From IMG/VR virus record IMGVR_UViG_3300032232_000301, positions 1 through 63,577 of that record: a stretch of 63,577 nt of DNA; one strand, 5' to 3'. Each line of letters opens with the position of its first letter. Within the stretch, counting starts at the first letter, position 1. Shown here in pieces: positions 27,101 to 54,624 of the stretch. The notes under the pieces were generated by a model. The model made no database searches and had not been told where the DNA came from. It saw only the letters and a program-made list of their open reading frames with translations. This DNA is from a virus. Lineage: Duplodnaviria; Caudoviricetes. The translations under genes and the position numbers were made by a program.

Positions 27101-30100
27101 ACTGCCATACGAGACTGAAGTCACAGGCACGACCAAGAAAGCCGTAACTCCGCCCGTCACGCCCAAGGGTGAGTTGCGCAGACCCTCGATGAAGCAAGAG
27201 GGTAAACCTTATAAGATCAGCGATACCAAACTGCGCGGTGCTTGGACTACTCTGAAGCAGATGTTCGAGAGCCGCTCAGATGTTAGCCCTGAGATGGAAG
27301 CCGCCAGAAACTACATCACAAACCCATCGCGTAAATCGTTTGGCTTTGTGCTTGCAGATTTGGCCCATGACATTGCAAACTGGGATGCGTTCTTAGAAGC
27401 CAAGTACGGTATGCGTGCTGCGGATGTTAAGGAGATGACGCCCGCTGAACGTAACAAGTTACCGCAGACCGAAGCACAGGCAAAGATGAAGACTGACTTT
27501 GGCCGGAACGCTACGTTCTACGGCGAAGGCGGCGTGTATTCTGAGAACTTCCAACGTTGGATCGAGCAGAATCTAGATGCCAAAACTGTTGCTGCACTTA
27601 ACAACATGGTTGCTGATGAACGTGCAAACTTGGAAGAGGAATCTAAGTTTGATCAAGCAGTAACTGCTTATAGGGCAGAGATCAAACGTCGGCAGGCCGC
27701 TAGCGCTGAAGCAAAGATCAAGAAAGCAGAAACTACTTCCGGTGTAAAGATCCCCCGTGCACCAAAACAAAAGCGTACTCGCAGTGAGGTGGTCTTTGAT
27801 ATGGAGACCCAAGGTGATGAAGCAATCACTGAAACCCCAGTCGATCTACGCAACATCCCTACAAAAGCAAAACTGCACCCGTCAGTTGTAAGGGCGCTCA
27901 AAGGTGGCGACCTCAAGGGTGCGCTTGAGATTCTTGCAAACACCAAGGCCGAGGGCTTCTACAAACATCTAGCTCAACGTCTGTTGGATGCCAAGCTTAC
28001 CGCCAAGGTCAAAGTTGTTCCTAAAGACAGCATTCAGTCTTTAAGTAATGACCCAAAGATCAAAGAAACACTGGAAGCCCAGATTCGTGCGTTGGACGAG
28101 ATGGTACGCGCAAGCTTGCCTGAGTCACAACAAGATGAGTTAATTACTGGTCTGCGGTCTAAAAATCTGTACGACGTCGCTGCTGCAGTTGAAGAGTTAC
28201 AGACTGCATTCACCAACCCATCTCAGCAGCAAATTGTTGCCGATACTGTGCAGTTGATGAACGAAGAGTTTAGCTGGTTTGGTAAGTATGATCCTGCAAC
28301 AGACACTATCACTTTGCGTGAGGGTTCGCTAGATAACAACGTCCTGTTGCATGAAGCCCTGCATGCGGCTACGTCACATCTGATTGATAACCCAGATAAG
28401 CTGCAAGGCGTTCGCAAAGAAGCTTACAACCAGCTGTTGGATTTGTACAACCACTCCAAAGGTATTTTGTCTAACTCACAGTTAGGCATCAAGCACATCT
28501 ACGGTTTAAATAACTTGCACGAGTTTGTATCCGAAGCGATGACAAACCCAGAGTTCCAAGCCATGCTGCGGGCGATACGCTACAAGGCCGCTCCGTACTC
28601 ATTGTGGAACGAGTTTACGACTGCTATTAAGAAGCTGTTTAAGGTAGAGTCCGACGTAGACAGCGATGTATTAGTTGAAGTCATGAAGGCTACCGATGCT
28701 ATGGTTGCGGGCCCCATGTCCATCGACAGCATGAGTGTTAAGTCAACGCCAAAGGCAATGGCAAAACAGATGGTCAAGGCTGTGCCTATTGGCGCGGTCA
28801 ACACACCTGCGGCTATCAATAAGTTGATGACATCTAGGTCATGGAACGAAGTCAGGAGTACGTTCCCAATTGCGTTTAGCAGTGCAGCCGCGAGTGCCAG
28901 ACCCGCTATGCTTGGTGCATTGACCTTACGTCAGATTAGCGACCTTGTACGCAACCGCATTCCGCAGGTGCAGAGTTTCATCCGGAAGGCCGAGGATTTC
29001 CTTGCCCGCAAAAACGGCATCCTGCAAGAGTCCGGCGATATTGCCAAGCGCTGGGAGCGTATACAAGCAAGAGACCCAGAGACGTCTAGAACAATTGCAC
29101 GGGTTATGCATGGGGCTACGATCTTGGAGATTGATCCAGACAAAACACCGATTTCAAAACTCAAGGCATTAAACCCTGAACTGGCGGCGGATTGGATTAA
29201 GCTCGACCCAACGGCTAAGCAAATCTACAGAGACGTGCGTGATTTCTACGACCGCCGCTACAGTGAGTACAAACAGTTAATGAACAAGCGCATCATCATG
29301 ATGCGTAACTTAGGTGTATCCGAAGCAACTATCCTTGAAATTCGCAATGAGTTTGAGAAGAACAAACGCAAGGGGCCTTACTTCCCGCTGATGCGTCATG
29401 GCCGTTTCTGGTATCAGATTGGCGAGGGTAAGAAACGTGAATACTACATGTTTGAAACCCAAGGCCAGAAAGAAATGCACATGGCCGAGCGGGTTGCGAA
29501 GAACCCAGAGCTCGAGGATTCAATTAAGCAAGGTTCAGAGTACGCCTCACAAATGGACTTACATGCTAAACAGTCTTTGTTCTTAAAGAACGCGTTTGAA
29601 GCTATTGACAGCGCCACTTTTGCGGGTAAGCCGATTGATATCGATTTGCAAAAGCAAGAACTAAAAGACAGCATCTATCAGAATTTCTTGGCCAACCAGC
29701 CAGAGCATAGCTTCCGTAGTCAGTTCATGCACCGTAACAACGTGGCAGGTTATTCTGAAGACGCGCTGCGTAACTTCTCATCCTCGTCGTTCCATATGGC
29801 GTACCAGCTGGCACGCTTTGAGTACGCGCCCGAGCTGTTTAGTAGCGTGCAGGCCGCTCGTGCGCAAATTAAAGATCGTTTTGATGCTGGCGCAAAAGCC
29901 GATGTCAAACTGTCTCGTGAAAACACAGAACTCAGTGACTATGTGACTGAGATGGATCGTCGCTTGAAGTTAATGCTAAACCCAACAAACGTTGGTACGC
30001 TCCCATCACTGCTGTCCAACATTGGTTTCGTTTGGTATCTGACTGCCCCTGCATCTGCTATCGTCAACGTGTTGGGCGGCATGATCATCGGCCTACCCAC

Positions 30101-34720: not shown

Positions 34721-34740
34721 TTTGAATCCATTCACACGTC

Positions 34741-34804
34741 AAAAGAGAGGGGGCGACGAGGGGTTGACGGAATCCCCGTTCGCTCCGTCGAGCTAGCCGC
34801 CCCC
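34741..34804 (-). ncRNA. Candidate pseudoknotted cis-regulatory RNA in the primase-helicase leader
   Basis: 9-bp outer stem encloses crossing 7-bp and 4-bp helices; G-U pairs work only on the - strand. Confidence 0.5.
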
Positions 34805-41819: not shown

Positions 41820-43645
41820 TAGCAATCTCCATAATTTTGAGCCATGCCTGACTCACAGTCCAGAGGCAATCCCTGCGCCCATGCAGGGGGAGTCCTCATA
41901 CATTCTTCGATATACGCCCGCGCCTCGAGAGCCTCGTCTTCGAGTACAACGCAAGCGATCGCATCATGCACAGTCAGCACTGCGCGATAACGCTTCTCGA
42001 TCTCGATCATCTGTGCGCCAATGATGCAACGGGCAACGGCTTGGCAAAGGTTCTCTGCTACCTTGCCGCCATAAATCTTGTTCGGCCCCATGCGTGTCTG
42101 ATAGGTGTAATCGCCATTGCTGTGGCGGGCTAACTCGGGGTAGTTCTGCATCAATCCATTCGGTAAACTAATACCTGTAAACGGCTCAAGCGTCATCAAT
42201 CCCTGCCTGTCCACCTCGGACGGCTTGTTGTGCAACATGAACTCAAGCACTTGGGTCAGATGGTTCCACCATCCTGCGATCGCTGGGTTGGCAAGGCGAT
42301 ACTGCTTAATGATGAACTTGCACATGTCAAGGTCTAGGTTCTTGCCCATCGTAGACAGTTGGGCTTGGAACTTAACACCGCCCATGCCGTAACCCGCGCC
42401 AAGCACAGTGGTCTTACCAATGAAGCGTTGCTCAGGGGTAACGTTGTCTATGTCAAAAACACCAAAGATGCTAGCCGCCATATGGCGATACACGTCTTGT
42501 TTCGTAGCGAACAGTTTCAAAACATTGGTCTGCCCCGCCAGCCACGCCAACACCCGCGCCTCAATCTGCGACGAGTCACAGTCGATGATGACATGCCCGC
42601 GAGGTGCAACGATACAGCGCTTGAGCTTGCCGCCCTCTGTGCCACGGCTAGGCAGGTTCTGCAGGTTCACCTTGTCCGAGCCACCCCACCGACCCGTGTG
42701 GGCCGCATAGTATTTCAACGGAATAGGCAGACGACGAAGAGCTCCGCCGATATGCCCGCGACGAGCGATACTGATAAAGCGCTCTGTACGTGTCTCTTCA
42801 AGCGTAGACTTAGCGCCAACCCGTGCGGCAACAAGGGCTTGCACGGCCTCATTCGGATGCTCAAGCAGTGCCATAAACTCAGCGTCACTCTTGGCAAAGG
42901 CGTAGGTGTCCTTGCCCGTAGCCGGACTGATCTTCATGGGTGGGCGCACATTGTTAGCTTCCAACAATTCTGCAAACTTGGCGCTACTGTTAAGGACTTC
43001 CTTCGTGATCTTGGCTTCGACGAACAGCTTCTCTTTGCGTTCCTTCACCTCAACCAAGTGCGATTCGAGTTTGTCCACATCGAGTTCAAGCAACGGGTCG
43101 CTGAACATACGAATCGTAATGTCGATCAACCGCTTCTCTATCGTAGGGAAGCTAGACATCTCGTTGTACAGTTTGTAGGTCAGCTCCACGTCGTTCTTAC
43201 AATACTCTCCGTATTGCGTAAGTTGGTCAACGGGAAAGTCTTCACGACGCAAGCCCCGTGCATCATGCACCTCTAAACCTTTTACGCCAAGGCCAAAGTG
43301 CTCAACCAACTTGGCAAGGCTTCCGCCCACAGTCGTACCAAACATTGCTCTAGCCATAGACAGGGTATCAAGCCACGCTTTGGGTTTCTGCCCAAACACC
43401 CACGTCAAAATTGCCGCATCAAAGATTGCGTTATGGGCTAGCACGAAGTGATTGCCCCAATCAAACTGCGCCAACCACTCAGCCGTTTCTTGCAGATCAC
43501 CGGAAAACCACTGGGCAGGTTCGGAATTAACCTTGACCGCTACACCGATCACCTGAAACTGCGGGTCACGCACATATTCCTCCGTCGTCAGACGGGTTAA
43601 AGAATACTCGCGACTATAAAAAGTCTCGAAGTCGATCGTGATCAT
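41819..43645 (-). CDS. polA: Family A DNA polymerase with 3'-5' exonuclease
   Basis: IDFET, AHNAIFD, YCKNDV; DSSQIEAR (motif A), KTTVLGAGYG (motif B), TVHDA (motif C). Confidence 0.92.
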   Translation of the reverse strand: MITIDFETFYSREYSLTRLTTEEYVRDPQFQVIGVAVKVNSEPAQWFSGDLQETAEWLAQFDWGNHFVLAHNAIFDAAILTWVFGQKPKAWLDTLSMARAMFGTTVGGSLAKLVEHFGLGVKGLEVHDARGLRREDFPVDQLTQYGEYCKNDVELTYKLYNEMSSFPTIEKRLIDITIRMFSDPLLELDVDKLESHLVEVKERKEKLFVEAKITKEVLNSSAKFAELLEANNVRPPMKISPATGKDTYAFAKSDAEFMALLEHPNEAVQALVAARVGAKSTLEETRTERFISIARRGHIGGALRRLPIPLKYYAAHTGRWGGSDKVNLQNLPSRGTEGGKLKRCIVAPRGHVIIDCDSSQIEARVLAWLAGQTNVLKLFATKQDVYRHMAASIFGVFDIDNVTPEQRFIGKTTVLGAGYGMGGVKFQAQLSTMGKNLDLDMCKFIIKQYRLANPAIAGWWNHLTQVLEFMLHNKPSEVDRQGLMTLEPFTGISLPNGLMQNYPELARHSNGDYTYQTRMGPNKIYGGKVAENLCQAVARCIIGAQMIEIEKRYRAVLTVHDAIACVVLEDEALEARAYIEECMRTPPAWAQGLPLDCESGMAQNYGDC

Positions 43646-43998
43646 GCGGTTGTGGCTCGGGGTTTGACGACTACGCGCTTGCCCTGTGAGGCGGTGATGG
43701 TTGTTCCGGCCATACCGTTGTCTATTGCCGCCCGCAACTTGGCGTTGATGTCCGTGTTGATGTTGTACTGACCTTGCTCAATGATGATCTCTTCCATGAT
43801 GCGGTTCAAGTCACTTACACGCCTAACCCGTTTATAAACGCGACCGATCACATAACGCTCAAAACGCGAAAGCTTCAGTTCGCTAAGCACATCCCCGATC
43901 TTTCTCAGGGAACGGGCATCAATTTCTTGTGTCTCTAGTTTTTCCATCAGCGCCTTGAGTTGATCACAGACAAAGGGGCGTAGTAGTTTGTCAATCAT
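43642..43998 (-). CDS. Hypothetical protein
   Basis: ATGA overlaps at both ends. Confidence 0.7.
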   Translation of the reverse strand: MIDKLLRPFVCDQLKALMEKLETQEIDARSLRKIGDVLSELKLSRFERYVIGRVYKRVRRVSDLNRIMEEIIIEQGQYNINTDINAKLRAAIDNGMAGTTITASQGKRVVVKPRATTA

Positions 43999-44300
43999 GG
44001 TTGGGCTTCCTTTAGTTGTTGTAGTACTGCTTCTACTTGTTCAATGTTTGTTTCGTTGATCACAAGCGCGTAGCCACCCGCGCTCTCAATGGCGCTAAGT
44101 TCTCTGCGTTGCAATGCTGTTGTGATATTCTTGCCCGCCTTGCATTCGATAGCTATGAACTGCCCGCGATAGCATGCAATGATATCGGGTATTCCAGCTC
44201 GACCGAAGCCGTTACTAGCGGGGAAAAAGAAGTATGCCTCATACTTTCTAAGTATGTCTGATACTTTGCGTTTTACTCTGGTTTCGGGTGTAAGTGCCAT
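43995..44300 (-). CDS. VRR-NUC / Holliday-junction-resolvase-like nuclease
   Basis: TPETRVK...GIPDII...AIECKAG...LQ; start set to MALTPE. Confidence 0.85.
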   Translation of the reverse strand: MALTPETRVKRKVSDILRKYEAYFFFPASNGFGRAGIPDIIACYRGQFIAIECKAGKNITTALQRRELSAIESAGGYALVINETNIEQVEAVLQQLKEAQP

Positions 44301-44306
44301 ACCTCT

Positions 44307-44334
44307 AATGTATAGCATTACTGGACTATGTCAA
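44307..44334 (-). promoter_or_regulatory. Sigma70-type promoter of the replication operon
   Basis: TTGACA-16 bp-TACATT. Confidence 0.55.
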
Positions 44335-44380: not shown

Positions 44381-44409
44381 GGAATCATCGACAACTTGTC
44401 GACTATTCC
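44381..44409. repeat. 29-bp dyad, copy 1
   Basis: GGAA tca TCGACA act TGTCGA cta TTCC. Confidence 0.9.
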
Positions 44410-44415
44410 ATAGGC

Positions 44416-44441
44416 AAAAAAAGACCCGCACTAGGCGGGTC
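44416..44441 (-). terminator. Intrinsic terminator of the early operon
   Basis: GACCCGC/GCGGGTC stem with U7 on the - strand. Confidence 0.8.
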
Positions 44442-44459
44442 AATTTGTTTAGTTAACTA

Positions 44460-45314
44460 CTACTTCTCTAGTATCAGGAAGTTAGTATCGTTGAGGCGAT
44501 AGCCTACGTCATCTACAAGTTCACCATCTTCCATCAGTTGTAGTACACCGATAGAGTTCTGCATGTACTCGGGTAGTTCATCAAACGCTTTGTACTCCAT
44601 CTCGCCCGTGTGGGGTCTGATAAGAAACGCATTGTTGTGATGCACTACTGCCTTGTACTTCAGCTTCTCCATCTTCTCAGCAAGCATACACTCGGACATC
44701 GCCTTGTGATACTTGTCAGATGTGAAGTGTTGCCGTATGACATCCGCGCCCGCTGGGTCTGTCTCACCATTCATGATCTGATACAAGAACTTCTGCATCA
44801 GTGTCTGATTAGGCCCCATCTGGTTGTTATGAATAGGGCGGAGTAGATCACGCAAAGAGTGAAAGAGCCCATGCTGTAACTCAGAGTGCGCCTTATCCAT
44901 GATCTCTGTCATGTTCTGCGGTACGAAATGTTTCTTCGCAAGTCGAGCCGCGCCCGTTATCTTGTTAGTAGATGACGTGTTGGTAGAACCGCGTTGGTTC
45001 TCAATACGCCACGACTTAATACAGTACACAACATCGCTGTTCCTATTGCGGTATCTCCTATCCAAGTATAGTTCACCGAGTAGTTCTGGGCCCTTGTACA
45101 CCTTCAGCTTGCTAAGAAACTGAGAGCCCTCCGGTGCGGTAATACCCCGATCGCATATAGAAGTTTTAGCTGAGGCGTAGTTCAGATCATTAGGCGCTAT
45201 ACCCTTGGTGGTAAAGGTAAAGGCTGGCATGTCTAACGCGAGCTTGTTCACAAGTTCCACGAGCATAGGCTCGAGCACGAGGTTGGGTGGTAGTTGAATG
45301 TTTGCAAATGCCAT
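44460..45314 (-). CDS. Hypothetical early protein
   Basis: 284-aa ORF with ELPE...IGVLQL...DVGYR C-terminus. Confidence 0.75.
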   Translation of the reverse strand: MAFANIQLPPNLVLEPMLVELVNKLALDMPAFTFTTKGIAPNDLNYASAKTSICDRGITAPEGSQFLSKLKVYKGPELLGELYLDRRYRNRNSDVVYCIKSWRIENQRGSTNTSSTNKITGAARLAKKHFVPQNMTEIMDKAHSELQHGLFHSLRDLLRPIHNNQMGPNQTLMQKFLYQIMNGETDPAGADVIRQHFTSDKYHKAMSECMLAEKMEKLKYKAVVHHNNAFLIRPHTGEMEYKAFDELPEYMQNSIGVLQLMEDGELVDDVGYRLNDTNFLILEK

Positions 45315-45319
45315 GTTGA

Positions 45320-46204
45320 TTACCAGTTAAATTTGTTGATGATCTCTTCGACGCTAGCCTTGAGTTCGATACGGGAACTCTCGTCAGCGCGTAGGTCCTT
45401 GATGTCTATCGTCGTCACCGCCTGCTCTAGCATACGACGAGCCTTCTCCAGCTCAGGGTCTTTGGTGACATTGAGTCGGGTCAACAGGTCGCACAGTTCC
45501 ACAGCGTTCTCTAGCAAGGAGTCACGGAAGATCTTGCGCTCCCCATCTTTCTCATCAGTTAGTCGCTCGCTCATACGGATGAGCATGGCGTGTAACCTAT
45601 CCCATGGGTCACGCATAGCTTCTTGCAGTTTGTCTTGGAACATCTTGTCGTACTGTTCTTGCAGATCAGCCTTGACACGAGCCTCGCAGTTGATGCGGAA
45701 GTCACCGCTCTCAGGCACAGGCAAGAAGTTGTACTCAAACTTGAAGCGACGAGGCAAGGTCTCTACATCGGGAAACTCATCCGCACGATAGTACTTGCCT
45801 AGCTTGAACGCTTGGTCGTTCTTGATCTGCGGGTACGCAATGATGAAGTCACTGACCAGTGCATAGAAGTTAGCTTCCATCGTACCGAGTTGCTCGCGGT
45901 ACTTAAAGAAGTTCTCCATAGGCAAGAGCCCGACACCCTTCATCCAAGGCAATGTCTGCGTTGAGTTCCAACCCCTGCACTTGGCGGCATACTTCTCAAT
46001 CTTCTTGAGGTGATCACTGCCCGCCATGAGGTACTTGTATACCGAGCCCGCATCTTGGTCAGCTTCCTTGGATGTGTTGACATCCATAGTTGTCTCGTTG
46101 TCACGCTTACGCGCAGTCCATGTACTGATGCGTAGTTCCACAAGCATAGCCATGGATGATAGGGAGACCACGGGGCCCGTGATCGTCAATGTATTCTCTG
46201 TCAT
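45320..46204 (-). CDS. DUF3150-like protein
   Basis: LVELRISTWTARKRD...TLPW...FRDSL; GGAG RBS; family from recall. Confidence 0.65.
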   Translation of the reverse strand: MTENTLTITGPVVSLSSMAMLVELRISTWTARKRDNETTMDVNTSKEADQDAGSVYKYLMAGSDHLKKIEKYAAKCRGWNSTQTLPWMKGVGLLPMENFFKYREQLGTMEANFYALVSDFIIAYPQIKNDQAFKLGKYYRADEFPDVETLPRRFKFEYNFLPVPESGDFRINCEARVKADLQEQYDKMFQDKLQEAMRDPWDRLHAMLIRMSERLTDEKDGERKIFRDSLLENAVELCDLLTRLNVTKDPELEKARRMLEQAVTTIDIKDLRADESSRIELKASVEEIINKFNW

Positions 46205-46225
46205 AGTATTCTCCTGTTTAAAAAG

Positions 46226-47275
46226 TTAAATGGAACTATCGACAACTTGTCGAAGTTTCCGTGGTACGCACTCAAGATCATGAAAGAACTTGCTGTTTGT
46301 CAGCGTAGACTTAACGCCTTTGGGCAGACGCTCAAGTCGGAACGCCTCATCCCTGTGCAGATAGGTGACGAGTTGTGTGATGTACTCGACAGCCTTTTCA
46401 GCATCTAGCTTCCTGTGATTCTGTGTGCTGACCCAGTGGTATTGGCCCGCACGATAAGCAACGACATGAAGTACTCGCACCCAATCATCGGGGTCTCCCC
46501 CCACAATCATCTCTTGCATGCGAAGGCATGCTTGCCTGTGAAAGCCTATCTGCCTGTTGTAACGACCAGTACCAAATGGTATGGCGTCTCGTGCGTATCG
46601 TTCTTCCCAATAGTCCTCACGCTCATCGGGCGATAGACTAGTAAAGTTGCTAGACATAGCCCTGTACTCCTCATTGGATGTAAACCCTAGCGATGTGGCA
46701 TAGCCCTCATACGATGGTTCTAACTCCGTCATGAGAAAGCTAGGCGCTACCGCAAGTACGACCTGCACCCACGATAAGAACGCCTCATACTGTGGCATCA
46801 GCTTCTTCACAACGCCTCGATTGGTGCGTATGTTGTACGCGACCGGTGCGTTAAGCAAGAATGATTTGCCATCCACCAACTGGAAGTCGAGTCGCCCGCC
46901 ACCACGGGGCAAGTGATACATCTCCTTGCGTGAACTGTCGGTGCAGTAGAACAAGCGACCCCTGTCCCATTGGAAGTGTTGCCCGCTAAGTGGTAGATAG
47001 TTCTCGATGTTGTCCGGTGTGTACGCAGAGTAATACTTCGGTGCAAACACAGAATAGGTATTGTCTGAGCGCCACTCGACAAGCGTAGTATCGTAGAACT
47101 TCAAGCGCACAGTGTTCGCATCAGGCATCTCAATGCTCGCCATGCAATGATGACGACGGCTACCCAATGGGCGGACATTGTCCTTGTTACCACGGATAGG
47201 TTTAGTTCTATCATGCCATAGCTTCGCGGCTTCAAAGCTCGCAAGCCTGTGCACATTTGCTGTATTCCAGCCCAT
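46226..47275 (-). CDS. Hypothetical early protein
   Basis: 349-aa ORF with RBS. Confidence 0.75.
   Translation of the reverse strand: MGWNTANVHRLASFEAAKLWHDRTKPIRGNKDNVRPLGSRRHHCMASIEMPDANTVRLKFYDTTLVEWRSDNTYSVFAPKYYSAYTPDNIENYLPLSGQHFQWDRGRLFYCTDSSRKEMYHLPRGGGRLDFQLVDGKSFLLNAPVAYNIRTNRGVVKKLMPQYEAFLSWVQVVLAVAPSFLMTELEPSYEGYATSLGFTSNEEYRAMSSNFTSLSPDEREDYWEERYARDAIPFGTGRYNRQIGFHRQACLRMQEMIVGGDPDDWVRVLHVVAYRAGQYHWVSTQNHRKLDAEKAVEYITQLVTYLHRDEAFRLERLPKGVKSTLTNSKFFHDLECVPRKLRQVVDSSI
46232..46260. repeat. 29-bp dyad, copy 2
   Basis: GGAA cta TCGACA act TGTCGA agt TTCC. Confidence 0.9.
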
Positions 47276-47276
47276 A

Positions 47277-47453
47277 TCATTTCCCCTTCAATAAAGAATG
47301 TTGAATAAAAGACATACTCTTGGAGAGCATGTGGATATCAAGCAACCGTTTCTGTTGCTCTAGTACTTGGTTGTCGTGTACACGACTACCTATATGGGGC
47401 GTATCGCCCTTCTTATAAACTACCTGTCCTTTAGCTAATACAACTAGTGGCAT
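47277..47453 (-). CDS. 58-aa hypothetical protein
   Basis: MPLVVLAKGQVVYKKGD...; fills the gap between genes. Confidence 0.45.
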   Translation of the reverse strand: MPLVVLAKGQVVYKKGDTPHIGSRVHDNQVLEQQKRLLDIHMLSKSMSFIQHSLLKGK

Positions 47454-47461
47454 ATGGTTTC

Positions 47462-47490
47462 GGAATAGTCGACACGATGTCGATTACTCC
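47462..47490. repeat. 29-bp dyad, copy 3
   Basis: GGAA tag TCGACA cga TGTCGA tta CTCC. Confidence 0.9.
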
Positions 47491-47645
47491 GCCTCCCCGT
47501 TGTAAAACGCAATCAGATGTTTGACCACCTGACCATTGGTTGGTTGAAAGCCTAGCTTAGACACGAGACCTTCCCTTACCTCTTGCAGTAACTCAAAGGT
47601 TTCTTGGTTAAGGGTGACCACAAAGTTTTGTACAGTTGGTTTCAT
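47484..47645 (-). CDS. 53-aa protein, possibly ribbon-helix-helix-like
   Basis: MKPTVQNFVVTLNQETFELLQEVREGLVSKLGFQPTNGQVVKHLI; ATGA coupling. Confidence 0.55.
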   Translation of the reverse strand: MKPTVQNFVVTLNQETFELLQEVREGLVSKLGFQPTNGQVVKHLIAFYNGEAE

Positions 47646-47884
47646 CGTCTCTGCTCCGCCTTGAGTTTCATGTTGGTCTCCACCTCAAGCTTGGTAATAG
47701 CTGTGATGGGTGTGACGTATGCCGCCTTGATATCAGGCGGACAGAACATCAACGCCTGACTGTTGTTGGAATCAATCCACTCTCGGCTAAGACGAGTGCA
47801 CGCATTGAGTGTGTCGCATACAGACAACGCCTCAGAGATACCCATGATGAACTGCTTATCACCTATGTGCAGAATAACTTCCAT
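47642..47884 (-). CDS. Hypothetical protein
   Basis: GGAGG RBS; coupled. Confidence 0.7.
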   Translation of the reverse strand: MEVILHIGDKQFIMGISEALSVCDTLNACTRLSREWIDSNNSQALMFCPPDIKAAYVTPITAITKLEVETNMKLKAEQRR

Positions 47885-47885
47885 T

Positions 47886-49154
47886 TCAAACCTCCTTAAT
47901 GTTTACGATCTGACCTTTGGGCGGTGTGTAGTCAGCGTTACCGATCACGCACCACAAGATAGGAACATTCAACGATGCCCACCCCGGCGGATTGCTATGC
48001 ATATACCCATCCGTTAGAACCACAAGAGCATCTGGCCTAATGCTATGTTCTTGCATAAACACAGGTATGCAGTCAGGGTTAGTACCACCACCACCTCGTG
48101 GGTTTGTTCTACTGATAATGTTTTTGATATCAGATGTGTAGGTCTCATGCCCATCCACACGAGTGTCCCAATACATAACATCCACACGATCAGGCATAAC
48201 ATCCAGTATCAGCTTATTGAACTCCGACATGAACGCATCAAGCAACGGACCTTGGATAGAGCCCGATGTATCAAATGCTACCGCGAGGTGCTTCATCTTC
48301 TTACCGATGATCGCAGGCAGGATAACGTCTTGCCACAAGTAGTTCTTGTGAGCCTTGCGCCACGATGGTGCGTCACGCCCGCGCAGATTCGTCTTGACGA
48401 ACCGCTTGAGTACTTCACGCCAATCAATCTTCGGTGCGAGAAGTTCACCAATCTCTCTGGACATGTTGCCGCCTACCTTGCCCGCATAGATCGCGCCTTG
48501 GCGCAGCGCATGATCGATGTCCTGTTCTAACTGTTTCTTTTCCTCTTCAGACAGACCATCCTGTGCGCCTTGCCAGTCGTGCTCGTCAAGGGAATTACCG
48601 ACATCTTGTCGATCGTTCCCGCGATGCCCGTTTCCACCCTCGTCATCACCATCATCACATGGGCGACCACGAGGTGGTGGCTCAGGTTGTTCTTCACGCA
48701 AGATATCAAACACCTGCTTGGCATCCATACCACGGAAGCGCGTGTCAAAGCAACCCATCGGCTTACCCGTCTGGGGGTCACGAGGATGAGACAAGACACT
48801 CTCGCTTGGGTCCATATCGTACAACTGGATGTTGATCACATGGTCGCACGCCATGTTAGCGAGTTGATGGTCGACCTCGTGCAACCCCTTCCACGTTGTT
48901 AGGTGGCGGTAGCACTTGTGCATGTTCTCGTGCATCACAAGAAACGCAAGCTCTTTGTCAGCCAAGCTATCGACAAAGCCACGCCCGTACTCAGCATCTC
49001 TGCCGTTGGTGCGCGCAGTCGGTACAAGATCAGACACACTTGTGCGACCGACCATGAACAGACCAGCAAACAATGCGAACTGTGGGTTACGCATCAGGCT
49101 AACGTGAACAAGCTCGATGCGTTGTTCAGCTTTGAGTTTTGGTTTGAGTATCAT
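47886..49154 (-). CDS. DUF2201-like metallopeptidase plus VWA domain protein
   Basis: MHENMH (HExxH), FDTSGS (MIDAS), GGGT, LTDG. Confidence 0.85.
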   Translation of the reverse strand: MILKPKLKAEQRIELVHVSLMRNPQFALFAGLFMVGRTSVSDLVPTARTNGRDAEYGRGFVDSLADKELAFLVMHENMHKCYRHLTTWKGLHEVDHQLANMACDHVINIQLYDMDPSESVLSHPRDPQTGKPMGCFDTRFRGMDAKQVFDILREEQPEPPPRGRPCDDGDDEGGNGHRGNDRQDVGNSLDEHDWQGAQDGLSEEEKKQLEQDIDHALRQGAIYAGKVGGNMSREIGELLAPKIDWREVLKRFVKTNLRGRDAPSWRKAHKNYLWQDVILPAIIGKKMKHLAVAFDTSGSIQGPLLDAFMSEFNKLILDVMPDRVDVMYWDTRVDGHETYTSDIKNIISRTNPRGGGGTNPDCIPVFMQEHSIRPDALVVLTDGYMHSNPPGWASLNVPILWCVIGNADYTPPKGQIVNIKEV

Positions 49155-49290
49155 TTTCTAATTCCTCTTTCATTCTTAAAGTCATTACTTCAATGTAATG
49201 GGCTAGGTCATGTTCTCCAAGGAGTCGCAGTTGTGCCGCGAACCCCATGCCCGAACGGTAAAAGTTATTTAGTTGTGTCTTGTCAATCAT
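49126..49290 (-). CDS. 54-aa hypothetical protein
   Basis: MIDKTQLNNFYRSGMGF...; fills the gap. Confidence 0.45.
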   Translation of the reverse strand: MIDKTQLNNFYRSGMGFAAQLRLLGEHDLAHYIEVMTLRMKEELENDTQTKTQS

Positions 49291-49474
49291 CGTACCCCCC
49301 TGCTTTCAACATCTCATCGGCAAAGTAGTACGACTCCTTCGCAAGCTCAGGGATAGCATCGCTAATCCAATCCTCTAGCGTACCGTCCATAAACATGGCG
49401 CGATACTGTGGCACTAGACTTTGCATAGCCAAGCCCGCAAAGTGATCTCTTAGTTCTCTAATAGTCATAGTCAT
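49283..49474 (-). CDS. Hypothetical protein of the LRDxFAxxAM type
   Basis: LRDHFAGLAMQ...YYFADEMLKA. Confidence 0.7.
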   Translation of the reverse strand: MTMTIRELRDHFAGLAMQSLVPQYRAMFMDGTLEDWISDAIPELAKESYYFADEMLKAGGYDD

Positions 49475-49731
49475 TGCACCACCTTCGCTTTCACATCGAT
49501 AACGACCGTCGTATCCTCAAGCTTTCTCAGCTTCTTCTTAGCGAGCGGGGCGGATGAGTCAAACTCGGTGGAGAGACGAGACCATACAGTCGCGTTCCAT
49601 TTAGCCAGTCGCTGACTGGCAATGTGTATCCATCGCCCGCTAGTCTTGTCAACAACATCAAAGCCCTCATTAACTGGCACGATGAAACAGTTGCGGTAGC
49701 TGACGGGGACGCCTATCTTAGTAGTTTTCAT
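49471..49731 (-). CDS. Hypothetical protein
   Basis: AAGGA RBS; ATGA coupling. Confidence 0.65.
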   Translation of the reverse strand: MKTTKIGVPVSYRNCFIVPVNEGFDVVDKTSGRWIHIASQRLAKWNATVWSRLSTEFDSSAPLAKKKLRKLEDTTVVIDVKAKVVQ

Positions 49732-49750
49732 TTAAGTTCCTTAGTTGGTT

Positions 49751-49779
49751 GGAATGTTCGACAGAATGTCGATTTATCC
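49751..49779. repeat. 29-bp dyad, copy 4
   Basis: GGAA tgt TCGACA gaa TGTCGA ttt ATCC. Confidence 0.9.
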
Positions 49780-50850
49780 CTTGAGTCCGGCAAACATGTA
49801 CTGGTTCTCACGAGCCCATGTCACGAACGCAGGGTGTGCAATAGCCCAATTCTTCTTGGCTTTAACTTCAAGTAAGCTGTTGATGAAGAGTGCTTGTGCT
49901 TCTTTAGGCATACGCTTGACGAAGCGCATCCATGTTCCGAATGTTTCACGAGTGCATGTGGACACACCCTTGAACATTAAAATACATTGAGCCGCTGGGC
50001 TTGTGGGCAAAGTCACAGAGTCAGGGTTGGTCTCGATCGCCTCACGGGTCGGGAGTTGATCAGCCATGGCGATGTATGCTTGCAAGTCACGCGAGCCTGA
50101 GAAACCCAGAGTGCCGTCAAGTGCTGTGATCAATGCGTTCTCTGTGATGCGGTCACGCACAGTTACCCAATGCGATGCTTTAAACAAGGAACGAGGCGAG
50201 ACAAACGCAATCTGCGAGGCATCACTTGGGTTGAAGATGTACGGATTCTCTTTCTGCCCGCCATCGGTATACGACGCCATGCAATGCGGATACTCTCGCA
50301 CCCATGCTTGCACCTCGGGTGCTACACCGTTATTGATAGCCCAAGCTAGCCACTCGTCAGCACTGGGCTTCATGTACGGGGCCCATGTCTGACGGTTGCG
50401 GGTATGCGCCTTGGCTGAATCACCGACACCATCACCATCGTTGTTACCGGTAGTAAAGACAATAGAGTCAGGGTGCAAGTTGAAGTTACCCATCCGACGC
50501 TCGTGCAGTAGCGGGTGCAGAGTGTTACGCACATAGTCATCGGTCTTGGTCCACTCGTCGATCATGATCACGCATGGTTCGTTGAGATGAAGCTTGAAAC
50601 TCTCAGCGGGATAGAAGTCCAAGGTGCGTGTCGTGTGGTTAGGGATGGGCATGCCCGCCTGACCCACATCGGTGTTCGGACCATCGATGTACACCTTGTG
50701 ATATCCGGTGCGCTCGACGATGACATCTTGGATCGCGGTCTTACCAACACCGGGTTCGCCAGTAAGGTGTACTGAGTTATGCCCGCTATGGAGAAGCAGA
50801 TCAACGGCCTCTGCGAAGTTGATACGACGGCTGAATTTAATATCTGACAT
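49774..50850 (-). CDS. AAA+ ATPase (MoxR/dynein-related type)
   Basis: GEPGVGKT, MIDE, TTGN, SPRS. Confidence 0.85.
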   Translation of the reverse strand: MSDIKFSRRINFAEAVDLLLHSGHNSVHLTGEPGVGKTAIQDVIVERTGYHKVYIDGPNTDVGQAGMPIPNHTTRTLDFYPAESFKLHLNEPCVIMIDEWTKTDDYVRNTLHPLLHERRMGNFNLHPDSIVFTTGNNDGDGVGDSAKAHTRNRQTWAPYMKPSADEWLAWAINNGVAPEVQAWVREYPHCMASYTDGGQKENPYIFNPSDASQIAFVSPRSLFKASHWVTVRDRITENALITALDGTLGFSGSRDLQAYIAMADQLPTREAIETNPDSVTLPTSPAAQCILMFKGVSTCTRETFGTWMRFVKRMPKEAQALFINSLLEVKAKKNWAIAHPAFVTWARENQYMFAGLKG

Positions 50851-50879
50851 TTTGGTTTCCTAATAAAAGAAGAGAGAAA

Positions 50880-50908
50880 GGAACGATCGACACCATGTCG
50901 ACAATTCC
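50880..50908. repeat. 29-bp dyad, copy 5
   Basis: GGAA cga TCGACA cca TGTCGA caa TTCC. Confidence 0.9.
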
Positions 50909-50912
50909 GAGG

Positions 50913-51188
50913 TTACGAGCGTGGGTACTTTTGGTTGGTATCTAGAAGTGTCTTGGGTGCAGACGCCTCAGTTACCAACATGTAAGGACCTTTGCCGTAG
51001 GGTTGCACCACACACCAAGACTGGCGTGCGGAGATCGCGGCTTGATTACCGCAATGCATGCACGAGTGATAGCCTAAAGACCAACGCTCGTGGTGGACGT
51101 CATCCCCGCAATGGACACAGGCGTACCAGTCGTAGGTACGTCTCGGCGGGTGATGATCGTCATCGTATTCTGTAGTATGGTGTGTCAT
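50913..51188 (-). CDS. C4 zinc-finger protein (DksA/TraR-like finger)
   Basis: CVHCGDDVHHERWSLGYHSCMHCG. Confidence 0.6.
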   Translation of the reverse strand: MTHHTTEYDDDHHPPRRTYDWYACVHCGDDVHHERWSLGYHSCMHCGNQAAISARQSWCVVQPYGKGPYMLVTEASAPKTLLDTNQKYPRS

Positions 51189-51343
51189 GGATTGATCTCC
51201 CAATAAGTTAAGACAAGCTCATCCGTTTCGGGATGACGGTAGAAATGAATCTCGGTGTAGTCACGCCCCTCTGCAACGCATCGGTCGAGGGCTTGCAACC
51301 AACTGAGGGCAATCGCCTTGTGGCGAATGGGTCTGCGCCACAT
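51185..51343 (-). CDS. 52-aa hypothetical protein
   Basis: MWRRPIRHKAIALSW...; coupled at both ends. Confidence 0.55.
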   Translation of the reverse strand: MWRRPIRHKAIALSWLQALDRCVAEGRDYTEIHFYRHPETDELVLTYWEINP

Positions 51344-51432
51344 CACGGTCTCCAATAGAAGAGGTCGAGGACAAGCACAATGAGTGCAAGGGCAATGATG
51401 AAGCGCTGAAAGCGCTCGAAGTCAGTAAACAT
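51343..51432 (-). CDS. 29-aa single-TM peptide
   Basis: MFTDFERFQRFIIALALIVLVLDLFYWRP; GGAG RBS. Confidence 0.65.
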   Translation of the reverse strand: MFTDFERFQRFIIALALIVLVLDLFYWRP

Positions 51433-51468
51433 AAGGCATCTCCAATATAAGAAATAACACAAGAGGAA

Positions 51469-51497
51469 GGAATAGTCGACAAGCTGTCGATAAGTCC
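51469..51497. repeat. 29-bp dyad, copy 6
   Basis: GGAA tag TCGACA agc TGTCGA taa GTCC. Confidence 0.9.
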
Positions 51498-51548
51498 GAC
51501 CACGGAAGGAAGTACATAAGAAGTTCTACTAGCTAATGTACTTCGTAC

Positions 51549-51577
51549 ATTATACCATACATTCTAGACAAAGTCAA
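51549..51577 (-). promoter_or_regulatory. Strong sigma70-type early promoter
   Basis: TTGACT-17 bp-TATAAT with extended -10 TG. Confidence 0.8.
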
Positions 51578-51608
51578 GACCCCCTCCGTGTTTCAGGCAC
51601 TCATTCCG

Positions 51609-52379
51609 TTAGTTGGCAGGTAAGTCCCAGTCTTGCATGGATTTCTGTAATAGGCGCTTCTTTCGTTCCTCGATCTGCTTGAAGATGTTGTTCTCGCCAA
51701 AGAAGTCCTCCGCCTCTTGGTTTAGCTGAGCTTTTTGGGCGGCTTCCTCTGCGGGCGTGACGGGTGGTTTATAGATCATGCTCTTCATACGCAACACGGG
51801 TTTGAAGTCGGTATCGCTAGGCGCGGGCGGAGTGTTATGGGCGTTCGGGATGATCTTGTCTTGGCGTAGATTAGCGGGAAGTCCCTTGGCATCATGGCCC
51901 GCTTGCATCGCGCTCTCTTGGAGTAGCTTTAGAACACCAAGTTCAACAGGCTGGAGTTCGTCGATGAGTTCACGCGAGGGCAACACATGGCGTATCTTTT
52001 CTTGAGCGGGGGTGAGATCGGTGAAGAACCTGCCCGCCTTGCCCTCTATGGAGGACAGCTCCCAACGCAGTTGCACCATCTTGGTGGTTTCGGTGTGGTG
52101 GTATGGGTTGACGCATGACGGGGTCGTGCACCATTTCACCAGACGCTTGGAGGCGGGCACATACCTGCAAAGGGTGAACAGGATGCGGGCCACCGAGTTG
52201 GTGTTAAGTTTCATCGTGAGGTGTGAAGCAGGGGAAAGGACAGGTGGGGGAGGGTTGTGGGCGGACTCTTCGCCATACGGCCAAACAAAGCAAAGGTCGG
52301 AGCCTTGGATGAGACAGTTGTTGATGAGGTCATCAGCGTTCTTGTACTTGGGGGTGCGGGTGCGTTTAGGTTCAGTCAT
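51609..52379 (-). CDS. Degenerate His-Me finger (HNH-like) protein
   Basis: CFVW...VARILF...KWCTTPSCVNPYH; start set to MTEPK with AAGGA RBS. Confidence 0.6.
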   Translation of the reverse strand: MTEPKRTRTPKYKNADDLINNCLIQGSDLCFVWPYGEESAHNPPPPVLSPASHLTMKLNTNSVARILFTLCRYVPASKRLVKWCTTPSCVNPYHHTETTKMVQLRWELSSIEGKAGRFFTDLTPAQEKIRHVLPSRELIDELQPVELGVLKLLQESAMQAGHDAKGLPANLRQDKIIPNAHNTPPAPSDTDFKPVLRMKSMIYKPPVTPAEEAAQKAQLNQEAEDFFGENNIFKQIEERKKRLLQKSMQDWDLPAN

Positions 52380-52394
52380 GGGGTTCCTTTGGAT

Positions 52395-52769
52395 AGTCAA
52401 GTTCGATAAGAGTGGAATAACAAGCCTTATCTTATCTCTTACTTTGGGGAATGTCAAGCATTTTCAAGGGGTTGCGTGGTAAATGTAAGAGATAATAAAC
52501 CTCTTCGCGGTTTTAGGAAAATTGAGAGAAGAAAAGTTTTTGGGGGGAGCCATGCCCGCGAGGGGCGATCGGGAAGCTAAGAAAATTTCCGGCGCCTCTC
52601 AATTTTCTGGAAACCGCGAAGAGTTCTTATTATTTATTATTTTTAAAGATAGATAGAGAGAGAAGCTAGGAAAATCAAGGACTTGCGAAAGCGCTCGAAA
52701 ACTAAATGTAAGATTGCGGATATGCTAAATTCGTGTTATCGAACTTGACTTTGGGGGTTAAATGTAAGA
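52395..52769. repeat. Nested inverted and direct repeat region (origin-like)
   Basis: 15-bp perfect IR 52395-52409/52736-52750; 28-bp IR 52501-52528/52596-52623; three TAAATGTAAGA; AT tract 52624-52647. Confidence 0.75.
52429..52457 (-). promoter_or_regulatory. Sigma70-type promoter
   Basis: TTGACA-17 bp-TAAGAT. Confidence 0.7.
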
Positions 52770-52899
52770 CATAAGATACGGATGGTGGTGTTAACACCTA
52801 CTAATAAGAGCGAATCAGGAAAAGAACATCTTGCCAGGGAGTTGGTGTGCGAGTCTTGACGCGAGCATCACTGGGCGGGCGTCGCTTCGTAGCGGGCGC

Positions 52900-52928
52900 G
52901 GAAAGATCGACGAAATGTCGTTAATTCC
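52900..52928. repeat. 29-bp dyad, copy 7 (degenerate)
   Basis: GGAA aga TCGACG aaa TGTCGT taa TTCC. Confidence 0.8.
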
Positions 52929-53111
52929 CAACAACCCTAAGCCGTTCGTTAGGGGACTGGTATCTATAGCGGGCGTCGATACCACGCCAACGTCGCCCGC
53001 GATGCATAGGACTAGCCCGTTGCTCAACACCATGCCCCTAGGACTACTCCGTTGCTCTGCACGGAACGGGTCTCGCGGGCGCGGCAAAATTTGCCGCCCA
53101 GAAAAAAGGCG

Positions 53112-53149
53112 AAAAAAAACGCCCGCCACGCTAAAAAGCATGACGGGCG
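53112..53149 (-). terminator. Intrinsic terminator (duplicated hairpin, copy A)
   Basis: CGCCCG/CGGGCG stem followed by U8 on the - strand. Confidence 0.7.
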
Positions 53150-53157
53150 CGGGGGGA

Positions 53158-53367
53158 TTAAAGCATCTCCCTGAAACTAAACTCAGCGATAGCCAAGGGC
53201 GCAATGCGCTCATTGCGGGCTTTGAAAGCCTCGAAATTTTCGTCGCAAGCAGAACGACGGCAGTGCATTGTTGCCAGAGTGACACGCTTGTCACGGAAGC
53301 GATCTTCACCCATCGGCAAAGTCACGAACATAAAAACGGTCAACTGACCAAAAACATCGTTAGACAT
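53158..53367 (-). CDS. 69-aa early hypothetical protein
   Basis: MSNDVFGQL...; GGAG RBS; followed by a terminator. Confidence 0.6.
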   Translation of the reverse strand: MSNDVFGQLTVFMFVTLPMGEDRFRDKRVTLATMHCRRSACDENFEAFKARNERIAPLAIAEFSFREML

Positions 53368-53434
53368 ATAGTCTCCAATAAAGGTTAGGGAAGAAACGCC
53401 CGCCATGCACAATTACATAGCGGGCGCGGTGGGA

Positions 53435-54112
53435 TTAACCCAAGAGCAATGCGACTTGAGCGAGCAAGTCCATTGAGTCATCGGTGCCAGCTTTCGCTAG
53501 CTCTTTCACGCGGGCAATGATTTTGTCCGCCGTCGCTTTGACCAACGCTTTTTCAGCATCAATAGAATCAGCCTCACGACGCTTGATCTCTTTGCGAAGC
53601 TTGTCAGCCTCACGATTAGATGCATCAGTATCCTGAGCCCGCAATGCTTGCCGCTTTTCTTCTAACTCAGCAGTGCTGATGTCAGCCAGTTTAGCGATCT
53701 CTTTTGCTTTCGCCTCGGCTTTGCGAACGGCATCCTTCGACTCTGACTTAGGGCGCGTAAAGGGAACACTTTCACCCTTTTCATTTTTCACAGTAAACCC
53801 AGAACTAATCCGGTTTACTTGTCTCTCCCATCGCTTTTGAGCCGCATCAACCGAATCGAGTAGATCGACCGCGCCCGCAATGTGAAACTCGCGCACCTTC
53901 ATGAACTCGACATAAGACAGGTCTTTGACGATCTCAAACAGGTTCGCATCGAGTACATCGAGCGCCTCTTTGCCGCGAGCCATGAGGCGCTCGGCTTGGA
54001 GTGTCTCCGTACCCAACTGAAACAGAGTCTCGCGGGCAGAGTCAATAGAATCGAAACCGGTAATGGTTTCAACAGCGACAGCAGATGTCGCAACAGTAGC
54101 AGTAGTTGCCAT
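53435..54112 (-). CDS. 225-aa helical protein, probably the first early gene
   Basis: MATTATVATS...; GGAG RBS; charged coiled-coil C-terminus. Confidence 0.75.
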   Translation of the reverse strand: MATTATVATSAVAVETITGFDSIDSARETLFQLGTETLQAERLMARGKEALDVLDANLFEIVKDLSYVEFMKVREFHIAGAVDLLDSVDAAQKRWERQVNRISSGFTVKNEKGESVPFTRPKSESKDAVRKAEAKAKEIAKLADISTAELEEKRQALRAQDTDASNREADKLRKEIKRREADSIDAEKALVKATADKIIARVKELAKAGTDDSMDLLAQVALLLG

Positions 54113-54152
54113 GATGTATTCTCCGTAATAAAAGGAAGGCATGATTGCCACC

Positions 54153-54181
54153 GGAATAATCGACATCGTGTCGAACATTCC
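54153..54181. repeat. 29-bp dyad, copy 8
   Basis: GGAA taa TCGACA tcg TGTCGA aca TTCC. Confidence 0.9.
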
Positions 54182-54542
54182 GTATCGCCAGACCATCAAT
54201 CTGTCGATGATGTATATTAACCAATGGGTAGAAAAAGGGGTGAAACTCCACACAGGAACGCCATGCTAAAGAATGGAAAAATCCCGAAAAAAAAATCGCC
54301 TTGTCTCCGGCTAGACCTCGTGAATCGAAAAAAAATCGCCCTCCGGAGAGACCTATGTAAATCAAAAAAGACTCTGGCGTTGACCCACTGGGTGGGCACC
54401 CCCAAGATTGGAGAACACCTCCTGCCCCAGGACATACACAGTGTGCTGCACAGTGGGGGAGCAAAAATTAAAATTTCTGGGATTGCAGACCCCACCCCCT
54501 CGCTATAGGAAGACCCCCCGGTAAGGGGACCCAAAAATAAAT

Positions 54543-54572
54543 TTGCATAGGGTGTATTTTTTCTGCTACAGT
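54543..54572 (+). promoter_or_regulatory. Possible promoter of the packaging/head operon
   Basis: TTGCAT-18 bp-TACAGT with extended -10 TG. Confidence 0.45.
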
Positions 54573-54624
54573 TCGCGGGCGAGGCGGGCAAGGCTCGCAT
54601 TAACCATGGAGCGCTCTTTCCTCT

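Follow-up and report, generated by a model that had tools for sequence, protein, structure and literature searches.

A 29-bp dyad re-coded in concert along the early arm of an uncultured freshwater phage family

In the accounts of Cluster A mycobacteriophages (L5, Bxb1) on which we draw, stoperators are described as numerous repressor-binding sites that mostly lie away from promoters, in short intergenic gaps; they follow a lineage-specific consensus that is matched by each phage's own repressor, and binding blocks elongation (PMC6550527, PMC9283540). As presented there, each stoperator is a 13-bp asymmetric site that is oriented with transcription and bound by a monomeric repressor, and up to about 30 are spread genome-wide in these temperate phages (PMC6550527, PMC9283540). 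The PeSL motifs of T4-type phages are short conserved regulatory repeats located between early genes and beside variable genes (PMC4122927, PMC2839356), consisting of composite terminator/promoter sequences that serve as points of homologous exchange (PMC4122927). Here we describe a 29-bp gapped dyad, GGAA-N3-TCGACA-N3-TGTCGA-N3-TTCC, that recurs in the early arm of IMG/VR record IMGVR_UViG_3300032232_000301, a complete virus record of 63,577 bp from an uncultured, freshwater phage family; the whole of this stretch is referred to below as the window. The dyad is like a stoperator in that none of its nine copies overlaps a sigma70-like promoter and in that it occurs as five site types by lineage, a link to a cognate repressor being only tentative and made through g1, the first gene of the arm. 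Unlike stoperators, it is a 29-bp, four-box symmetric element without orientation, its 5 to 10 copies are confined to an arm of ~10 kb in the window and 12 related records, one copy is kept in coding sequence, and no lysogeny genes were recognised among the proteins scanned. Because both the oriented asymmetry and the genome-wide spread of stoperators are lacking, the dyad is not a member of the stoperator system and is instead a dyad-symmetric, arm-restricted variant. It also differs from PeSLs: it is not itself a sigma70-like promoter or a terminator, and its sequence is too broken up to serve homologous exchange.

The repressor of the temperate actinophage phiC31 binds multiple conserved inverted repeats in the early region, and the dyad likewise forms multiple repeats in a phage early region. 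The lambda N/boxB and T7 RNase III sites are hairpins of early transcripts, found after promoters or between cistrons and read through their loops or overall structure; in the case of N/boxB, hairpin and protein co-vary between lineages. Unlike these sites, the dyad has a free loop and a stem of fixed sequence, and it is present in nine copies rather than two, with one copy beyond a terminator. The literature on phage early-region intergenic palindromic repeats, searched also with motif words (supplements not covered), held no description of the dyad.

The dyad in the window and in related phages

When up to 3 mismatches were allowed, the dyad had nine matches in the 63577 bp, all within 44381-54181, against a mean of 0.00 over 100 dinucleotide shuffles. 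The inner core, TCGACA-N3-TGTCGA, with at most 1 mismatch, gave eight matches in the same stretch only, against 0.12 expected. An earlier note on this DNA had listed eight copies and had placed none outside this 10 kb; its eight coordinates were all right and the confinement holds genome-wide, the window being the whole record, but a ninth copy (48591-48619, 1 mismatch), inside gene g10, had been overlooked. The copy that was said to lie within coding sequence (RKLRQVVDSSI) does so and is site H, in the last 35 nt of a 349-amino-acid (aa) open reading frame. The leftward, minus-strand arm extends from ~54150 down to 31883, the dyad-bearing genes are all on the minus strand, and the sites are spaced 0.4 to 2.4 kb apart on this one arm only. 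The sites, to which no strand is assigned, are as follows.

Site A, 54153..54181: 0 mismatches; upstream of g1, the arm's first gene, ending 40 nt short of its ATG.
Site B, 52900..52928: 2 mismatches; in the 700 bp of non-coding DNA that separate g2 from the g3 promoter.
Site C, 51469..51497: in the leader of the strongest sigma70-like promoter, at ~+46 from the inferred start.
Site D, 50880..50908: 4 nt past the g5 stop codon; the AAA ATPase gene has its ATG 29 nt further on.
Site E, 49751..49779: overlaps the stop codon of the ATPase gene (GGA TAA).
Site F, 48591..48619: within g10, in an acidic, glycine-rich, hypervariable linker.
Site G, 47462..47490: overlaps the stop codon of the 53-aa g12.
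Site H, 46232..46260: in the last 35 nt of the 349-aa gene; ends 27 nt before the ATG of the DUF3150-like gene.
Site I, 44381..44409: ~6 nt past the T-run of a terminator; the replication-module promoter has its -35 46 nt further on.

The genes on which these positions depend are the following.

g1, 53435-54112, minus strand: 225 aa; the arm's first gene and the candidate reader of the sites.
g5, 50913-51203, minus strand: two CxxC pairs, small and zinc-finger-like.
g6, between sites D and E, minus strand: AAA ATPase gene; the g5/g6 junction carries site D.
g10, 47886-49154, minus strand: 422 aa; DUF2201_N metallopeptidase-like domain plus a VWA-like domain.
g12, 47484-47645, minus strand: 53 aa, ribbon-helix-helix (RHH)-like by eye.
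g14, 46226-47275, minus strand: 349 aa; followed by g15, the DUF3150-like gene.

The exact motif was found in 38 stretches of 30 IMG/VR contigs, 37 of which (37/38 stretches) encode relatives of the arm proteins, and the same 38 stretches hold 116 copies at up to 3 mismatches. Five related records that were scanned whole have 8, 7, 8, 8 and 9 copies, each set within 9-10 kb, and 12 related whole records, each scanned with the pattern of its own type, have 5-10 copies each, all inside 9-11 kb; with the pattern reversed as a control, every related record scanned gave 0. A scan of the genome and its relatives, as the earlier note had proposed, thus finds in the window and these 12 records that the sites track the early arm and are not uniformly distributed genome-wide.

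An alignment of the DUF3150-like protein yielded 45 loci, 43 of which were scanned for dyads. The window motif is carried by 14 loci, and the other 29 have no copy of it at up to 4 mismatches. Twenty-eight of those 29 could be typed as four other dyads built on the same 4-N3-6-N3-6-N3-4 frame, and the remaining locus has too few sites to class. The five types are as follows.

Type 1 (window): outer box GGAA, inner box TCGACA; 14 loci.
Type 2: outer box GAAC, inner box CCGACA; 15 loci.
Type 3: outer box GAAC, inner box CCAACA; 8 loci.
Type 4: outer box GAAC, inner box TCGAA(T); 4 loci.
Type 5: outer box GGAA, inner box CCCT with a 7-nt centre; 1 locus.

In a backbone tree of four concatenated conserved proteins (33 rows), types 1, 3 and 4 each form one clade and type 2 is paraphyletic, in three places; type 4 is nested next to a single type-2 phage, and the sister of type 3 is a different type-2 group. 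Positions were compared across 14 loci covering all five types. Site B lies between g1/g2 and g3 in 14/14 loci of all five types, the g5/g6 junction site (D) is present in 12/14 and the g14/g15 junction site (H) in 13/14; site A has an orthologue in 5/5 related type-1 genomes, one of them decayed. Site F is found inside g10, 722-746 nt before the end of the gene, in 14/14 loci of the five types. It is read in at least two reading frames in different phages and the encoded peptide follows the motif type; ten codons are kept down to synonymous positions, and the flanks are free in length and sequence. Site I has a T-run just upstream in 14/14 loci and a sigma70-like -35 at 13-46 nt downstream in 12/14.

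Every copy in a genome has therefore been re-coded together, at least four times, with the positions kept. This concerted re-coding argues for a lineage-specific reader whose specificity changed alongside the sites, and against both a conserved host factor and a merely structural element. The sites, their orthology, their conservation at the nucleotide level and their concerted change between lineages are direct observations from these comparisons, and as judged from the sequences, selection acts on the nucleotides of the dyad. The dyad is very probably a sequence-specific recognition element with a co-evolving reader.

The sites also stand in regular relation to putative transcription signals, the promoters and transcription starts being consensus matches only.

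Sigma70-like promoter, 51549..51577, minus strand: 11/12 consensus positions, TG-extended; upstream of site C.
Sigma70-like promoter, 52429..52457, minus strand: 10/12 consensus positions; upstream of g3.
Sigma70-like promoter, 44307..44334, minus strand: 10/12 consensus positions; downstream of site I, with counterparts in relatives.
Intrinsic-terminator-like hairpin and T-run, 44416..44441, minus strand: directly upstream of site I.

The earlier note had held that the sites avoid sigma70 promoters; indeed none overlaps one, but fixed distances to promoters were found. A site lies 66-108 nt after a -35 in 11/14 loci of all types, and the distance from the start of the -35 to site C is 80 nt in the window and 80-85 nt in 6/6 type-1 genomes. 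The promoter beyond site I leads into the nuclease, PolA and the remaining replication genes.

Duplex DNA or RNA as the target

Among 98 distinct type-1 copies, 20 positions are 79-100% conserved, and the nine degenerate positions have dyad-symmetric preferences (r 0.81 vs -0.12 for a reversed control). The N3 blocks, which had been reported to vary freely, do not: in these copies T-W-R is preferred in the spacers and C/A...G/T at the centre. The spacers of types 2-4 are nearly all A/T, no spacer position having more than 5 G/C in 75. The claim that the outer N3 blocks are not complementary was right and can be put more strongly, as the spacers pair below the expectation from independence. Watson-Crick pairs observed versus expected number 16 vs 29.6 for pair 7-23 of type 2, 20 vs 29.5 for pair 6-24 of type 1 and 2 vs 6.4 for pair 6-24 of type 3, counts that include orthologous copies, so that nominal p-values are inflated. 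At positions 14/16, 21 Watson-Crick pairs were seen and 28.1 expected. Likewise, that mismatches are not compensatory was borne out, with 1 compensatory case among the six inner pairs of the 98 copies; by the test used for RNase III-type sites, the structure of the dyad is not kept by compensatory change within a type. Spacing is invariant, as had been stated, the one exception being a decayed copy from a relative, in which the centre is 2 nt long. Deviations in the two half-sites number 30 vs 39 in the type-1 tally, and both halves are equally conserved.

Duplex DNA is favoured as the target over RNA by roughly 2:1 on these sequence patterns, because the boxes are invariant, the centre and spacers vary, the preferences are symmetric, the spacers are underpaired and site I lies past a terminator. 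The alternative that survives best, although we consider it unlikely, is an RNA hairpin in early transcripts, its upper stem of 6 bp and lower stem of 4 bp separated by a 3x3 internal loop, which would be read by a sequence-specific RNA-binding protein or nuclease in processing, stabilisation or antitermination, after the manner of N and boxB, and would co-evolve with it by lineage. Several observations favour the hairpin and weigh against an operator on duplex DNA. All sites but I are probably in sense-transcribed sequence, sites are found in leaders at ~+30 to +50 past promoters and at cistron junctions, and the nine copies are predicted to fold as stable RNA hairpins at -7 to -13 kcal/mol (z -2.1 to -4.4). 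Complementarity has been kept through all of the type switches. Variants compatible with G-U pairing in the sense RNA exceed A-C variants (79 vs 31 in the type-1 tally; about 30 vs 14 in the type-2 tally), an excess that could equally come from a strand-biased, transcription-linked mutation spectrum. The pairing-keeping double change GGAG...CTCC occurs in 5 distinct copies from related genomes against 0.9 expected, and neighbouring small hairpins with true covariation show that the leaders are structured. In addition, sigma70-like matches in the region, on which the operator reading leans, are no more numerous than in shuffles (10 vs 11.1).

RNA-binding proteins usually read loops, yet in the dyad it is the bases of the loop and internal loop that vary and the stems that are fixed in sequence. 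The hairpin is further opposed by the near absence of covariation within a type, by dyad-symmetric preferences at positions that would be unpaired, and by the location of site I past the terminator in 14/14 loci. The site in the coding linker of g10 would expose that mRNA to the same reader, and the type-5 inner stem has only 4 fixed pairs around its 7-nt centre, with 9/18 possible inner pairs formed in the one genome available. In a public RNA library, which offers contigs only and no transcript ends, contigs from relatives bridge several genes and sites. Rfam and tRNA scans gave no match at the dyad sites. The preference of the earlier note for a dimer on double-stranded DNA over an RNA hairpin is thus supported in part: the site is a sequence-specific one, and duplex DNA fits better, with a minor share of the probability left to RNA.

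Candidate readers and proposed mode of action

The chance that g1 is the reader of the sites is, in our estimate, about one in three. Site A precedes g1, and another site directly follows it in many relatives. An alignment of 36 g1 proteins (27 distinct ones of types 1-3, four of type 4 and one of type 5) has 24 columns that are at least 90% conserved in the 27 distinct proteins of types 1-3. Four of these 24 columns change in both type 4 and type 5, namely, D55, V73 (to I), R97 and R101; the two arginines are thus replaced in two of the four derived types. The inner box xCRACA is common to types 1-3 and is not found in types 4 and 5, the two lineages in which the inner box is most divergent. 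In the structural model of g1, a helix at 67-83, a helix at 88-105 and a beta hairpin at 107-117 (pLDDT near 90) form a candidate helix-turn-helix (HTH)-plus-hairpin unit, and R97 and R101 are four residues apart on the helix 88-105 and outside the predicted dimer interface. The homodimer prediction scored 0.69 vs 0.00 for the best control, a mark reached by 20/30 solved homomers and by 1/23 proteins with a single-chain structure; the dimer runs had no less than 83% of their contacts in common, with a partner pLDDT of at least 78. The models support self-pairing of g1. The ratio of within-type to between-type identity is highest for g1 (1.43), with g14, g16 and g18 also high. The naming of protein 53435 as a possible binder in the earlier note therefore gains tentative support from the arginine changes in types 4 and 5 and from the predicted homodimer.

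Other findings on g1 count against this role and against the operator reading that leans on it. The column overlap of 4 vs 1.75 expected has a hypergeometric probability of about 0.04, and the case consists of only two independent switches; a type-1 phage (L139) has N at position 97, and no g1 residue was found that tells types 1, 2 and 3 apart once phylogeny is allowed for. Type is tracked neither by overall g1 identity nor by the N-terminal insertion, overall identity being uninformative because short and long N-terminal forms mix across the types. Fold searches with the g1 model had no significant match: Foldseek returned 0 rows at E <=0.001, its weak rows (E >1) including several winged-helix proteins, and the best VIA match (Z 6.1) was to the C-terminal helices, with residues 128-210 making up most of what the VIA rows span. 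Neither Pfam nor PHROGs gave a family for g1. Membership of the phiC31 repressor-c family, given an atlas score of 0.75, was not borne out by a Pfam scan of six g1 proteins.

The other candidates put forward in the earlier note fared less well. The RHH-like g12 was rejected as the reader because, from its N-terminal strand on, it is unchanged between type-2 and type-4 phages: the type-2 protein (L069) is the same as that of type 4 (L070, L073, L090), bar one K/R exchange and the tail, and the residues that would read DNA do not change while the site type does. Its sequence has no Pfam, PHROG or PDB match, and Foldseek gave 0 rows at E <=0.001; its model consists of an N-terminal coil and two helices, with a NikR chain at rank 33 (TMq 0.61). 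The proposal of the HNH-like protein at 51609 (g3) found no sign in its favour in diagnostic columns or in the alignment by eye, and the alignments of g3, the zinc-finger-like g5 and g11 had no type-linked pattern by eye. For the HTH protein at 34811 there was no sign for or against in the 12-record ortholog table, in which no gene's similarity follows type against phylogeny. None of the early-arm proteins has columns diagnostic for all of the derived types. Whole-protein tracking of type by g14, g16 and g18 was discarded, as these proteins evolve fast whatever the type. Indeed, g16 (44460-45314, minus strand), g14 (46226-47275, minus strand) and g18 (43642-43998, minus strand) evolve much faster than their neighbours: in phages that share 83-97% identity in PolA and the DUF3150-like protein, the three are 43-52% identical, whatever the motif type.

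We propose, with a probability of roughly 0.45 that rests on patterns in the sequence, that the dyads are stoperator-like operators that shut off the early arm. The element would be an operator of four boxes with dyad symmetry, recognised as double-stranded DNA by a protein of the phage that itself has two-fold symmetry (possibly a g1 dimer) and whose specificity differs by lineage. In each half, this protein would read the inner box of 6 bp and, beyond an A/T spacer, the outer box of 4 bp, the candidate g1 carrying a predicted helix-turn-helix-plus-hairpin unit in its predicted homodimer. About nine copies would be set along the first-expressed 10 kb, in leaders of early promoters of the host type, in gene gaps and in one long gene without gaps. 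Once accumulated, the reader would bind at the sites, turning down its own gene and standing in the way of host RNA polymerase along the arm, and site I would mark the border between the last terminator of the arm and the replication module. Duplex DNA as the target, repression by binding and g1 as the reader are steps that we infer. Of the three options that the earlier note had offered, stoperator-like roadblocks fit best, although the asymmetry and genome-wide spread of stoperators fail to appear.

A further-reaching version, which we regard as improbable, is that the five site types amount to classes of specificity resembling immunity groups, in a family that is apparently lytic. In that case g1, as the first protein made, would coat its own dyads and so time the early-to-replication switch, and it would also silence the early arm of a later-arriving phage of the same type. 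Competition in co-infections would then drive the concerted re-coding, as a heteroimmunity arms race without lysogeny that is recorded in the coding linker.

Somewhat less probable again is that the dyads are loading or anchoring points, either for a co-ejected virion protein on the first-entering DNA or for ParB-like spreading or bridging, with a site per 1-2 kb. The spacing of 0.4-2.4 kb over a single arm and the retention of a site inside a 1.3-kb gene that lacks an intergenic gap would suit such a function, as would the 2499-aa polyvalent protein encoded at the end of the virion module (24105-31604, plus strand), which has LPD39 at residues 1594-1732 and DarB-like matches at 1600-2489; its residues 1-1590 have no Pfam or PHROG match. 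However, the proteins scanned (not every open reading frame) included no ParB-like or partition protein, the contig ends of complete relatives differ, so that no fixed first-entering end is evident, and the fixed distances to promoters and terminators would go unexplained.

The N4 early promoters have a 6-bp stem and a 3-nt loop, a geometry that the stem and loop of the dyad match, and the sites precede most early genes. It might thus be supposed that the dyads are extruded as single-strand or cruciform hairpins, serving as N4-like promoters for an unrecognised injected RNA polymerase or as priming or replication signals. This is very improbable. There is no RNA polymerase among the ~50 proteins scanned, residues 1-1590 of the 2499-aa protein being without assignment; a promoter would be directional, whereas the halves of the dyad are equally conserved; good sigma70-like promoters are already present in the arm; and the spacers avoid pairing. 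The least credible option, and at most a side effect of the sites, is the suggestion of the earlier note that they bound gene cassettes, being shuffled by recombination as described for PeSL exchange points (PMC4122927): variable-content slots (g2, g4, g7-g9, g13) and the fast-evolving g1 and g14 adjoin sites, but uninterrupted identity between copies never exceeds 6 bp, the ATPase and DUF3150-like genes, which are the best conserved, have sites beside them too, one site is intragenic, and 20 positions strictly conserved across deep divergence need a reader.

Genome context and significance of the dyad

The structural genes of the window run rightward from 54625 round to 31604 and encode the small and large terminases, the portal, tail fibres and the 2499-aa polyvalent protein. 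The nearest deposited phages are distant: TerL, the large terminase, is ~55% identical to those of a lake phage and pelagiphages, and PolA is ~33% identical to those of Rhizobium and Pseudomonas podophages. The arm had no match among deposited phages by megablast. Arm synteny between the window and five related type-1 records is accompanied by protein identities of 28-90%, and the dyads occupy matching gene junctions in these genomes. No integrase or immunity repressor was recognised among the scanned proteins (~50; not all open reading frames). One further gene lies just beyond site I.

g17, 43995-44318, minus strand: PHROG endonuclease family match, with a PD...E-x-K-like motif.

A number of other elements were observed near the sites. 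Right after site A (54113-54152) there is a small hairpin, the stem of which is GAGC/GCTC, GGGC/GCCC or TGCC/GGCA in different phages; this is true covariation, unlike that of the dyad, and similar small hairpins precede the sites that follow g1 in relatives. A -10-like hexamer is found at a constant 32-34 nt from site A in 6/6 genomes. The divergent gap between g1 and the small terminase gene (54182-54624) is non-coding and has G-runs and two to three iteron-like repeats (GGTCT..CCGGAG.. then a T-run); this possible pac or origin region has counterparts in 5/5 related type-1 genomes. The arm begins with g1 and a 69-aa gene, each of which ends in an intrinsic-terminator-like hairpin of its own (53395-53430 and 53107-53150, respectively, minus strand), with a common GCGCCCG...CGGGCG stem. 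The 700-bp non-coding stretch at 52458-53110 contains three copies of CTTACATTTA, at ~52759-52768, 52703-52712 and 52479-52488, and a long inverted repeat with arms at ~52596-52623 and 52501-52528. A word like CGGCAAGTGC, about 35 nt after site B, is conserved in relatives; a consensus RNA fold after site B was unconvincing (covariation term +1.2, 1 pair with a double change). In type-2 and type-4 phages L062, L069, L073 and L082, the interval from g3 to g5 contains extra genes and a second promoter-plus-dyad module, in which the distance from -35 to site is always 66-67 nt. The ribosome-binding context CCTTTATTGGAG, 6-9 nt before the ATG, is common to many early genes of the window and its relatives (for example, 53370-53390 and 51437-51450) and occurs also without a preceding dyad. 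Elsewhere in the arm, an int-alpA RNA family match at 34736-34803 (minus strand; 39.3 bits vs the Rfam gathering score of 35.8) lies between a 75-aa gene with a weak HTH and the primase/helicase gene.

The dyad is a real, selected and family-wide element, and an unusual record of concerted re-coding; its function is what we infer from sequence. With five versions of one 29-bp frame, each in 5-10 orthologous copies, the family is a natural experiment on how a protein and its sites co-evolve, and phages available from metagenomes only have in this way yielded a testable candidate reader and two candidate specificity residues. Site F indicates that a regulatory site can be held in a protein-coding linker across reading frames and can dictate the peptide encoded there. 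If the roadblock reading is true, stoperator-type control would extend beyond the temperate actinophages, in a dyad-symmetric form restricted to one arm. The site types could also be used as markers that sort these phages into functional, possibly mutually excluding groups.

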